64,000 bases of DNA from a virus (IMGVR_UViG_2541047857_000009); one strand, 5' to 3'; shown: positions 7,119 through 52,054, numbered from the stretch's first letter. Made by a program: numbers and translations. Notes: generated by a model not told the origin, from the sequence alone.

Positions 7119-7288
7119 TGTCTACTCCACTTTCCCGCGTCATCACCAACGAAATCTTCCGCGTTCCGGCGCGCCGCAAGCGTAAGCCAGCGGTTAAGCC
7201 GTCCGACATCCCGACTTTCAAGGACTACACCGCCCGCCTGGTCGATCAGAAATGGCTGCGTCTCGCGGCGAGGAGAGCGCATGGCTAA
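7118..7288 (+). CDS. ninE: NinE-like protein (56 aa)
   Basis: Own translation MSTPLSRVITNEIFRVPARRKRKP...[11 protein letters not shown] resembles NinE; not in ORF track because under 60 aa. Confidence 0.6.
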   Translation: MSTPLSRVITNEIFRVPARRKRKPAVKPSDIPTFKDYTARLVDQKWLRLAARRAHG

Positions 7289-48943: not shown

Positions 48944-49092
48944 CGAGATTAAAGTGCATTAGTTCAGATGCAAATTGACATTTTGTGGCACAGGGTAGAG
49001 CTAGCGTGGTTGTCCGCTTTGTGCCAATAGCGGACATTGCTGGCTCATGGTATGTTAGTTTAAGGAGGCAGGTTATGCCCTGTATTTCGCTG

Positions 49093-49101
49093 TGGTATAA
49101 T
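49093..49101 (+). promoter_or_regulatory. Extended -10 promoter element for the AT-rich cassette
   Basis: TGGTATAAT at 49093-49101; second TGGTATGTT near 49042. Confidence 0.5.
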
Positions 49102-49134
49102 AGTTGCGCAATTGATACAAGGGAGCGTTACATC

Positions 49135-50097
49135 GTGAAAATTGTTTTCGAGGTTAATGGAAAGAAAGTTCCACTAAAATCTTTAAAATACATAAGCAAA
49201 AAAGATCAACTCGAAGTAATGAAAAACTGGTTCTTTGAAAACTTTGAAGATCCGGCAAATGCTTGTCCGTATGAAAGTAGAGAAGGTGGCTATGCTTACA
49301 TATATGGCGGGCCGTATGATGCGAGCGAAGAACTACAATCCATCTTCGGTCAATATGTTAAATCTGAGTATATTGAGGAATTAGTAGATGAATTACAAAC
49401 ACAATGTTTTGACTGGTCTGGAAACTCAAATAATATAGATGATTGGTACGATGATGATATCTACGACGCTGTAACGTCTTCCGGTAATCCGTATTTAAAA
49501 TTCATTGATAATATCGATAAAATAAAAAAACTTGCAAAAGATAAAACTGAACAACAGCAAAAAAACCACTTGCTTAGTTTGCTCTACACGAATGTTATTA
49601 CAGCTTTGGAAACGCTTTATGTTGAGCTATTCATTAATTCTATAGAGAAAGATGATGTCTACATAGCCAATTGTATAGAAAAAGGTAAGACTGAATTTAA
49701 AGTAAGCAAAGATATTGCTGCGTTGCCTTTCAAGGGTGAACCCATCGAGAAAATTAGGGGAGAGCTAATCAGGTCAATCAAGGAACACTTGATCAGTGCA
49801 AGCTGGCATAGCACTAAAAAGGTAATCGACCGCTATGAAGCTACATTCGATATAAAAGTACAAAAAGACTGTCCGATAGAAGCTATTGAATTGGCAACCC
49901 TCAATCGAAATCACTTAGTGCATCGTGGTGGAAAGGATAAAGAAGGGAACCTCGTAGTGATTACAGACCAGGATCTTGAAACGCTGATTGAAAATGCATC
50001 GAACCTGGCAATTATGCTCTACAACAGTTTAAATGTAGCAACGAATAAAACCACCATTTTGCAACCAGATGACAAACCGTTCATTCATGAATTTTAA
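49135..50097 (+). CDS. Candidate defence protein A: unknown N-terminal domain plus C-terminal HEPN-like RNxxxH motif
   Basis: AT-rich ORF; GTG 49135 with AAGGGAG SD (alt ATG 49075 with AAGGAGG); C-terminal LATLNRNHLVHRGG. Confidence 0.6.
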   Translation: MKIVFEVNGKKVPLKSLKYISKKDQLEVMKNWFFENFEDPANACPYESREGGYAYIYGGPYDASEELQSIFGQYVKSEYIEELVDELQTQCFDWSGNSNNIDDWYDDDIYDAVTSSGNPYLKFIDNIDKIKKLAKDKTEQQQKNHLLSLLYTNVITALETLYVELFINSIEKDDVYIANCIEKGKTEFKVSKDIAALPFKGEPIEKIRGELIRSIKEHLISASWHSTKKVIDRYEATFDIKVQKDCPIEAIELATLNRNHLVHRGGKDKEGNLVVITDQDLETLIENASNLAIMLYNSLNVATNKTTILQPDDKPFIHEF

Positions 50098-50112
50098 TAG
50101 CGCAGGTCATAC

Positions 50113-51114
50113 ATGGATATTCGCACACGAAAGACAAAATTTTTAGAGTCGTTAGATTCAACTGAAGTGATACGCAAAGCAGTAAGTCTCGCTATAGATT
50201 GCATTATTGATAATCATAATAGTAATGAAGATACCCCCTTAGTTATTACCAGCTATGATGATCTCTGTAGAATCCAGGTGCTAAATTATGTACAGGAGTT
50301 TTGCGAAGCTGCATTCCCTGATATGGATGAATATTACTTTAGTCCTAACATACTTCGCATCAACGGCAAGACTAGTGAAGAAGCTTGTATTAACTTAATT
50401 AAACTCTTAAGAAGTACAAAAGGCATGCTATTCTGGTCCGATGCCCCATCGTGGTTCGCTAGCCTCCCCGACGGATTATTCCATGTTGTTAACATTGATC
50501 AAAAAATCGTTACTCGCGGCCTTAATAAGAAAAACTCTAAGCCGACAATAATCAATAAAGATTACAGTGTAGATACACTACTATCAGAGCTATTTTTGAA
50601 TGGCGCACACATGGAGCAACCCAACGTACACAACGTTTCTGAGGGAAACATGAAGTTCTATGATGAATGCCATGCTGGATTAATCAGACCAATACCCGCT
50701 CCAATAGGCGCGTCATACGATGAAGAGATCACAATTAATTCTCCAGATTGGCAAAAGCTCGCGTGTGTAGCTTTACGCCGCTATCAGTCGAAGGAATGTC
50801 ATGACGGAATGCAATGGGATACAACCGATCATGGTTGGACTGATGTAATCGCGTATCCATTCGTCGAAGAAATACAATCAATGGATAATAGTGGTTATCG
50901 ACAATGTTTAGTTGGGCTGGTCACAATAAACAATTCAAATGCAAATTCTCCGTACCTATCTACCGTTTGGATACATCCATTTTATCGCAGGAGAGGGTTA
51001 TTAAGTAAGTTATGGCCAAAATTACAAGAGTTATATGGAAGTAACTTCGAAATTGAGCGACCTAATGAAAATATGAAAGCATTTCTGAAAAGTGCGAAAC
51101 ACGCAGATTACTAA
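50113..51114 (+). CDS. Candidate defence protein B: unknown N-terminal domain plus C-terminal GNAT-like region
   Basis: AT-rich ORF 15 nt after protein A; C-terminal LVGLVTI...VWIHPFYRRRGLLSKLW resembles GNAT motif A. Confidence 0.6.
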   Translation: MDIRTRKTKFLESLDSTEVIRKAVSLAIDCIIDNHNSNEDTPLVITSYDDLCRIQVLNYVQEFCEAAFPDMDEYYFSPNILRINGKTSEEACINLIKLLRSTKGMLFWSDAPSWFASLPDGLFHVVNIDQKIVTRGLNKKNSKPTIINKDYSVDTLLSELFLNGAHMEQPNVHNVSEGNMKFYDECHAGLIRPIPAPIGASYDEEITINSPDWQKLACVALRRYQSKECHDGMQWDTTDHGWTDVIAYPFVEEIQSMDNSGYRQCLVGLVTINNSNANSPYLSTVWIHPFYRRRGLLSKLWPKLQELYGSNFEIERPNENMKAFLKSAKHADY

Positions 51115-51225: not shown

Positions 51226-51516
51226 ATGTCTGCAGATCGCTCAAAGCGGACTAGAAGGTTAGCTTGCGTCGGACTTGGCGTATTTAAAGAAGTGCTGGTG
51301 GTGACTGGTTGTTGTGTTCCATTTCTACAGAACAAAATCACAGAAACTATACCCAATAGTTATATTGAATCAATGATGAGACAGCCTCATATTTATCAGA
51401 ACTGGTGTACGTCCAATACAGGAGGTTGTCGTGCTGGTTCTCAAATGTGCGCTAGCTATTGCGGCTGTAATGGCAATTTATTGTCTTGCTGTTGTTCTTA
51501 TGGATCGCCTTTCTGA
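51226..51516 (+). CDS. Cys-rich small protein (hypothetical)
   Basis: C-terminal CTSNTGGCRAGSQMCASYCGCNGNLLSCCCSYGSPF; AT-rich; start uncertain. Confidence 0.35.
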   Translation: MSADRSKRTRRLACVGLGVFKEVLVVTGCCVPFLQNKITETIPNSYIESMMRQPHIYQNWCTSNTGGCRAGSQMCASYCGCNGNLLSCCCSYGSPF

Positions 51517-51731
51517 TTGATTTTATATTGGCGAGGTGACGGGAGTTAAGTAGAATTGCTGCGGGTGCTTGAGGCTATCTGCCTCAGGCATGAACACCAA
51601 AGGCAGATAGAGAAAAGCCCCAGTTAATATTACGCGTCCTGCAAGACGCTTAACATTAATCTGAGGCTCAATCTATGAACGGCAAATCTAGGTTAGCCTC
51701 TTACGTGCCGAAAGGCAAGGAGAAGCAGGCT

Positions 51732-51887
51732 ATGAAGCAGCAAAAGGCGATGTTAATCGCCCTGATCGTCATCTGTTTAACCGTCATAGTGACGGCACTG
51801 GTAACGAGGAAAGACCTCTGCGAGGTACGAATCCGAACCGGCCAGACGGAGGTCGCTGTCTTCACAGTTTACGAACCTGAGGAGTAA
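51732..51887 (+). CDS. hokD: Hok-family type I toxin (HokD-like)
   Basis: MKQQKAMLIALIVICLTVIVTALVTRKDLCEVRIRTGQTEVAVFT matches recalled HokD almost exactly. Confidence 0.85.
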   Translation: MKQQKAMLIALIVICLTVIVTALVTRKDLCEVRIRTGQTEVAVFTVYEPEE

Positions 51888-52054
51888 GAGACCCGGCGAG
51901 GGAGAAATCCCTCGCCACCTCTGATGTGTCAGGCATCCTCAACGCACCCGCACGTAACCCGCTTCGGCGGGTTTTGTTTTTTCCTGGCATTCTGGTTTAC
52001 AATTCGCACGCCAGCCTGAACAACTGGCACCTGCTGCGCCAGCAGAGACAACCG

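Follow-up and report, generated by a model that had tools for sequence, protein, structure and literature searches.

Several described systems resemble the genes considered here. The DefensePredictor study (Science 2026, PMC13092281) cloned predicted defense units, native promoter regions included, into a low-copy plasmid and exposed MG1655 carrying them to 24 phages; its supplementary tables list one unit, DS-33 (working id 'GNAT'), as defensive = TRUE, give its accessions and coordinates in Table S6, and count its two genes as one system by virtue of their adjacency (≤30 bp). HepS of the Salmonella prophage Gifsy-1 forms a tetramer without activity until a phage tail protein opens it, whereupon it cleaves tRNA (Nature 2026, PMC13043305), and the HEPN/RES-NTD1 plus HEPN protein architecture was catalogued computationally in 2013 as abortive infection (Abi)-like by Anantharaman et al., who also described an NTD1-RES fusion (PMC3710099). 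Here we analyze a two-gene cassette in a 64,000-nucleotide stretch of viral DNA, IMGVR_UViG_2541047857_000009 (the window), that an earlier note made from the sequence alone had read as a candidate phage-defense module consisting of a HEPN-like and a GNAT-like protein, called A and B below. The cassette is the already published defense system DS-33, and very probably it is an independently promoted moron in which A is a self-contained Abi-type RNase and B is an autonomous gene that A does not need.

The identity with DS-33 was established as follows: gene A occupies positions 49135–50097 (320 amino acids (aa), GTG start) and gene B positions 50113–51114 (333 aa), both on the + strand and separated by 15 nt, exactly where the earlier note had placed these two co-directional open reading frames. 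RefSeq contains the same two coding sequences, both annotated as hypothetical proteins (WP_014639476.1 and WP_000354966.1). The window A protein is identical to DS-33A (WP_014639476.1) at 320 of 320 residues and the window B protein to DS-33B (WP_000354965.1) at 332 of 333, and gene order and spacing are the same, so the idea that the module was undescribed no longer holds. This connection came from the supplementary tables of PMC13092281; literature searches by accession, by PHROG id and by HEPN plus GNAT gave nothing direct, and PADLOC, NCBIfam and PDB sequence searches gave nothing meaningful for A or B. Both proteins match only 'unknown function' families in PHROGs, megablast against sequenced phages found nothing for the cassette, and tblastn against phages found two distant A-like genes in unannotated fecal phage contigs and none like B.

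Which of the two genes carries the protection? The cloned DS-33 pair gave 2–6 logs of protection against phages T7, T3, Bas67 and Bas26. In the two replicates of the published mutant panel, log10 protection by the wild type was 3.8 and 2.6 (T7), 3.3 and 2.4 (T3), 4.0 and 2.0 (Bas67), 5.0 and 5.9 (Bas26), and 0.8 and 0.1 (T5). With the HEPN gene deleted the corresponding values were 0.1 and −0.3, −0.5 and 0, 0 and −0.2, 0.5 and 0.3, and 0.5 and 0.1, and with the R258A change they were 0.8 and 0.5, −0.3 and 0.3, 0.5 and 0, 0.7 and 0.4, and 0.4 and 0.3. With the GNAT gene deleted they were 4.8 and 4.3, 3.3 and 3.3, 4.0 and 3.3, 5.0 and 4.9, and 1.7 and 0.5 (all from PMC13092281). These plaque assays show that A is necessary for defense and sufficient within the published construct, that its residue R258 is needed, and that B is not needed against the phages of that panel. 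The defense call of the earlier note was thus right, for a system that the 2026 paper had cloned, named and mutated. The same study assigns DefensePredictor log-odds of 9.45 to A and 1.08 to B (cut-off 4) and reports a remote HHblits match of DS-33A to PD-T4-2_B (probability 96.1, coverage 0.55); its main text does not discuss DS-33, and it offers no mechanism, trigger or role for B (PMC13092281).

Protein A, the defense effector, probably carries a HEPN/RES-NTD1 domain followed by a RiboL-PSP-type HEPN domain. The HEPN catalytic motif R258-N-H-L-V-H263 (codons at 49906–49923, + strand) lies within the sequence LNRNHLVHRGG, whose R258, H263 and R264 do not vary among 38 homologues; the C-terminal domain is modelled as alpha-helical and matches HEPN structures. 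By motif and by fold, A is therefore a member of the Rx4-6H HEPN superfamily, as the RNxxxH reading of the earlier note had proposed, and it would be expected to be an RNase. Against Pfam HEPN/RES-NTD1 (PF18870) its residues 26–92 score 22.2 bits (E 1.9e-4), below the cut-off of 27.4 that its relatives P0113 and P0117 pass (29.6 and 28.7 bits), and A itself has no direct match to PF18735 (RiboL-PSP-HEPN), for which homologues 28–39% identical to A pass the cut-off of 28.4 (P0101, P0087 and P0108 at 36.1, 35.4 and 30.8 bits). A PDB sequence search found no detectable relation of A to any solved structure. The core WFxxNFEDP...GGYxYIxGGP is invariant in the A family. NTD1 is also found C-terminal to PIN_8, in one frame with helix-turn-helix (HTH) and ImmA/IrrE domains, and ahead of unassigned C-terminal regions, and this occurrence with several partners fits the 2013 description of a module common to HEPN and RES effectors. 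The most conserved stretch of the family, the glycine-rich PYESREGGYxYIxGGPYDA at residues 44–59 (49264–49311), is also the part of the AlphaFold model with the lowest confidence (pLDDT < 50); judged from the model, it may be a flexible loop that becomes ordered when a ligand or partner binds.

Protein B has a family-specific alpha/beta N-terminal domain (residues ~1–185) followed by a GNAT fold (residues ~190–333). Its score against Pfam GNAT is borderline (19.9 bits, cut-off 20.7) and 30 of 37 homologues match; its GNAT identity is clear by fold, and the acetyl-CoA loop between beta4 and alpha3 (R/Q-x-x-G-x-G/A) is present, which bears out the GNAT call made in the earlier note. Residues D29, C30, N34, R135 and N138 of the N-terminal domain are invariant. 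Pfam scans of 37 members and a profile search of PDB sequences found no relatives of this domain outside the family, and when 1.84 billion representatives were searched with a B profile, the 23 proteins recovered all shared the architecture of B or were pieces of it. Foldseek of B against the PDB gave weak matches (TM-score 0.27) to the protein lysine acetyltransferases HAT1, MYST and ESCO1 that are driven by the GNAT core. B is probably an autonomous GNAT acetyltransferase whose substrate would be a protein or other macromolecule.

The sole difference between the window B protein and the tested DS-33B allele is residue 289, a proline in the window (codon CCA at 50977–50979, + strand) and a leucine in DS-33B, where the acetyl-CoA loop WIHPFYRRRG begins. 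Proline occupies this position in 37 of 37 B homologues and at each of the 13 further loci checked; the allele of the window is the consensus one. Because an invariant proline is replaced by leucine in the published allele, the tested DS-33B may be weakened. The GNAT gene has been put to experiment just once, with an allele altered at this invariant residue, a caveat that the portions of the main text and tables of PMC13092281 consulted here do not raise.

The published mutants show that A defends when B is absent, and is the natural distribution of the two genes in agreement with this? We collected 80 genome loci that encode a relative of A and clustered the neighbors within 3 kb. B is present at two of these loci (the E. 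coli-type locus and one in Erwinia), and the other 78 are without it. Clustering of all neighbors at the 80 loci found no conserved neighbor of A, and PADLOC and Pfam scans of 150 of them found no recurrent family; they are a mix of integrases, phage genes, CBASS, restriction-modification and housekeeping genes. A-only relatives with 71–76% identity occur in Aeromonas taiwanensis, Yersinia alsatica and an E. coli island; each is monocistronic, with an intrinsic terminator directly 3' of the gene and no trace of B. Homologues of B at 39–62% identity also stand alone, in an integrative and conjugative element (ICE), a Mu-like phage, a defense-island-like cluster and ordinary chromosome, and one of them lies between a TerB/BrxC-like/DEAD cluster and Mrr_cat plus HEPN_Toprim_N genes. 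The A-B pair itself is confined to a narrow Enterobacterales/Aeromonas clade in which it moves as a unit; its sites there are an E. coli prophage, plasmids of the IncF and phage-like types (from E. coli, Klebsiella and Citrobacter), Erwinia, and an Aeromonas caviae island. The proposal that the cassette was acquired horizontally holds. Recurrence of the pair in other prophages and genomes, which had also been raised, was found within the narrow clade (including 209 of 5426 complete E. coli genomes) and fails for A relatives at large, as the two loci of the 80 show.

Within each pair the synonymous divergence (dS) is equal for A and B, and both genes are under purifying selection, with ratios of nonsynonymous to synonymous divergence (dN/dS) of 0.13–0.21 for A and 0.16–0.6 for B. 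Their decay is asymmetric. At the close B-only loci, 3' remnants of A with four different deletion endpoints lie upstream of an intact B, and on the Providencia rettgeri plasmid pNR1418-2 (L112 3334–5305) A is a pseudogene with two frameshifts next to an intact B of 85% identity; this pseudogene also has substitutions at conserved positions, G58S in the invariant GGP motif and, within Rx4H, H260Y. A single lineage of E. coli prophages (L095 5644–6606, nine contigs) shows a further change: residues 1–132 of a DnaC/YdaV-like ATPase are fused to residues 133–333 of B, a 320-aa chimera made by a deletion that removed A entirely. The remnants and the pseudogene together amount to at least five independent losses of A with B intact. 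The reverse was seen once, in E. coli SW07163 (L102 4604–5606), where A is intact and B is annotated as frameshifted; the cause is a 1-nt insertion (ctctt to ctactt) that is not in a homopolymer and is either a real mutation or an assembly error. B is a rare family (23 proteins among 1.84 billion) that outlives the HEPN gene and stays under purifying selection (dN/dS 0.2–0.5). Taken together, these distributions do not support A and B as a two-component system, since both families are overwhelmingly solo genes elsewhere, and the two-component character assigned to the module in the earlier note fails on this ground as well as on the published deletion of the GNAT gene, which leaves defense intact or about 10-fold stronger.

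How might such a one-gene defense work? The single HEPN domain of A would pair with that of a second copy to form the active site of what would be a metal-independent RNase, for which the loss of defense in the published R258A mutant is indirect support, and the N-terminal HEPN/RES-NTD1 domain is likely a sensor or auto-inhibitor that would keep the enzyme inactive until a phage cue arrives. The cue would then cause A to cleave RNA, and phage production would stop; by analogy, A would act like other solo HEPN Abi proteins. B would have joined downstream of A in one Enterobacterales/Aeromonas lineage, with a selected function of its own. Several points weigh against this picture of a self-contained A and an unneeded B. 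The mechanism beyond R258-dependent defense by A is what we infer. The linkage of the pair is tight, with the 15-nt spacing conserved, dS equal, and joint movement among prophage, plasmids and the Aeromonas island, and this could reflect a functional tie. Without B, protection against T7 was 1.0 and 1.7 logs higher in the two replicates (PMC13092281), a hint that B modulates A. Finally, the B that was tested has L289, so the dispensability of B is not established for the P289 allele of the window. A reading that takes these points together, which we regard as possible and no better than tentative, is that B with P289 is an autonomous mobile-element acetyltransferase, possibly of proteins, that has its own conflict function (a second defense or a counter-defense) and also tunes the HEPN effector, and that this was missed in the published test owing to L289. 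Separately, the cargo of the prophage slot may be exchanged by recombination at the two hairpins described below.

The hint of modulation is taken furthest by a true two-component system, in which B restrains the HEPN RNase, as a dampener or in the manner of an antitoxin, and so keeps down what A costs the cell; acetylation of A, or of the RNA or tRNA on which A acts, would be one way. The tight operon with its conserved spacing and equal dS would be expected of such a system, as would the roughly 10-fold gain in protection on deletion of B (against T7 in both replicates and against T3 and Bas67 in one; PMC13092281) and the excess of A losses (at least five) over the single B disruption in SW07163. 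However, the published strain without B is viable and defends (PMC13092281), A-only relatives with an intact Rx4H motif are common and monocistronic with no conserved neighbor, B homologues with no A nearby are still under purifying selection, and SW07163 tolerates an intact A beside a frameshifted B; we therefore consider this arrangement unlikely. A toxin-antitoxin pair was rejected as the main model on the 78 of 80 A loci without B, the lack of a conserved neighbor, the terminators that A-only genes have of their own, and the viability of the B-deleted strain.

If B does not regulate A, it could be a second stand-alone defense gene behind A whose range was missed by the 24-phage panel or because of the L289 allele. 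Its homologues occupy a prophage, phage-like plasmids, an ICE, a Mu-like phage and integrative islands, one of them being that between the TerB/BrxC-like/DEAD cluster and Mrr_cat plus HEPN_Toprim_N, B remains intact after the loss of A, and the allele used in the test departs from an invariant residue. We find this rather doubtful, in that the A-deleted strain was unprotected against the five phages tested (PMC13092281), the DefensePredictor value of 1.08 is below the cut-off of 4, PADLOC gave no match, and some homologues lie amid housekeeping genes. B might instead serve the mobile element that carries it, as a counter-defense or host-modifying acetyltransferase. The anti-CRISPR protein AcrVA5 is a GNAT and provides an analogue for such a counter-defense. 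Most B loci are on mobile elements, the best Foldseek matches are the lysine acetyltransferases HAT1, MYST and ESCO1, and an N-terminal domain unique to the family is what a dedicated target-recognition module would look like; set against this, the structural matches are weak (TM-score 0.27) and generic for GNATs and some chromosomal copies are outside obvious mobile elements, which makes this the explanation of B that we consider improbable. We thus retain the reading in which A defends by itself and B has an autonomous function.

The AT-rich cargo cassette is mobile as one unit and spans ~49036 to ~51236 (+ strand; borders from alignment with sister prophages), slightly wider on the right side than the range in the earlier note. 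Its low GC relative to its flanks, which that note had remarked upon, is confirmed by measurement: GC is 0.36 in A, 0.39 in B and 0.386 in the cassette as a whole (~2.2 kb) versus 0.508 in the whole window and 0.49–0.52 in the flanks, and along the sequence it drops to 0.35–0.43 across A and B between flanks of 0.50–0.56. The cassette carries an extended −10 element, TGGTATAAT, at 49093–49101 (+ strand), identified by direct reading and by its conservation as GTGGTACAAT in Erwinia and GTGATACAAT in Aeromonas; a simple −35/−10 promoter scan did not call this site. The Shine-Dalgarno sequence of gene A (AGGGAG, 49120–49125, + strand) is 9 nt ahead of the GTG, and AAGGAG plus GTG is kept across these genera, so that both signals singled out in the earlier note are present and conserved. 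A 340-aa form of A starting at the in-frame ATG at 49075 was ruled out: this ATG is not conserved, which supports the GTG start and the 320-aa reading.

The window DNA is identical to that of E. coli UTI89 and ATCC 11775. The cassette resides in a Qin/Rac-like lambdoid prophage of a B2-type E. coli, adjoining ompW, between a DUF977 (replication) gene and hokD, and its assignment to a prophage accessory slot holds. The content of this slot is hypervariable. Between identical flanks, sister prophages have different cargo, such as an unrelated single HEPN protein, DUF5677, FRG, DUF4209 or QueH proteins, HicAB, RelE/ParE, an HNH endonuclease, a three-gene cassette, or just ~400 bp of non-coding DNA. 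In the Qin prophage of K-12, relBE is directly upstream of hokD in this slot. Rfam places sok at 51563–51737, and there is a weak isrK-like small RNA match at 51896–51977, just downstream of hokD (27.8 bits against a gathering score of 50, E 0.003). Slot cargo worth testing as defense candidates includes a 310-aa HEPN protein with RSKAVH that is unrelated to A (L099 895–1827), a DUF5677 protein (L100 1971–2996) and the three-gene hypothetical cassette (L115 891–3893).

The slot is bounded by hairpins. On the left, the perfect inverted repeat GTCCGCT-ttgtgccaat-AGCGGAC occupies 49012–49035 and folds as single-stranded DNA with −9.3 kcal/mol (z = −3.3); conservation among sister prophages stops at its end, 49035, and the variable cargo starts right after it. 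At the right border, TCGCTCAAAGCGGAC (51237–51251) forms the 3' half of another hairpin built on this stem, and sister prophages have that hairpin complete (in L101, 3001–3024, it folds with −9.2 kcal/mol, z = −3.8). The two hairpins share the stem GTCCGCT/AGCGGAC and have unlike loops (also at L115 669 and 4002, and at L113 4973 and ~7183–7193). In the IncF plasmid copy of the cassette, the homology spans precisely the interval between the outer arms of the two hairpins, these arms included, and its right-hand limit is the AGGGAC-type arm, AGCGGAC; a Citrobacter phage-like plasmid has kept just the right half of the left hairpin. These homology limits of the plasmid copies at the hairpin arms suggest hairpin-mediated cassette exchange. 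The DUF977-hokD slot is a hairpin-bounded hotspot whose many cargo genes could be mined for new defense systems.

Two other locations of the pair are also of note. On the E. coli IncF plasmid NZ_CP069974 (L113) the cassette adjoins relB, with IS26 ~340 bp downstream, in a region with qnrS1 and erm(B), and it appears to be prophage cargo that was captured into a resistance plasmid. In Aeromonas caviae (L082–L084) the pair is on a relaxase-bearing element ~1.2 kb from a convergent SIR2 plus cREC_REC pair, and this neighborhood looks like a small defense cluster.

How, then, does this locus compare with known systems? With DS-33 it is the same locus in gene order and spacing, differing in that the tested B has L289 and the window B has P289 (PMC13092281). 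The HEPN/RES-NTD1 plus HEPN proteins of the MAE_18760 and RiboL-PSP-HEPN families have the same architecture as A, and for them an Abi-like conflict role was predicted (PMC3710099); that description is purely computational, and A itself is below the PF18870 cut-off and has no direct PF18735 match. PD-T4-2 is related through the HEPN half of A alone, by way of its RiboL-PSP-HEPN protein PD-T4-2B, and has a different partner gene; the PADLOC PD-T4-2 models had no match at E ≤ 0.01 to A or to any of 38 members of the A family, and none to B. The pair also differs from HEPN-MNT (HepT/MntA) and GNAT-RHH (TacAT/AtaRT-type) systems: no MNT or DUF1778/RHH (ribbon-helix-helix) partner is present at the A-B locus, the best GNAT matches of B include no TacT- or AtaT-type toxin, and B is dispensable and A is tolerated alone. 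HepS is similar to A in being a single HEPN protein with an Rx4-6H motif and no conserved partner gene, in occupying an accessory slot after lambdoid replication genes, and in defending against incoming phages (PMC13043305), and it is the best working model for the possible action of A. Comparative genomics independently accounts for the published deletion result, with DS-33 being really a one-gene NTD1-HEPN defense of the HepS kind.

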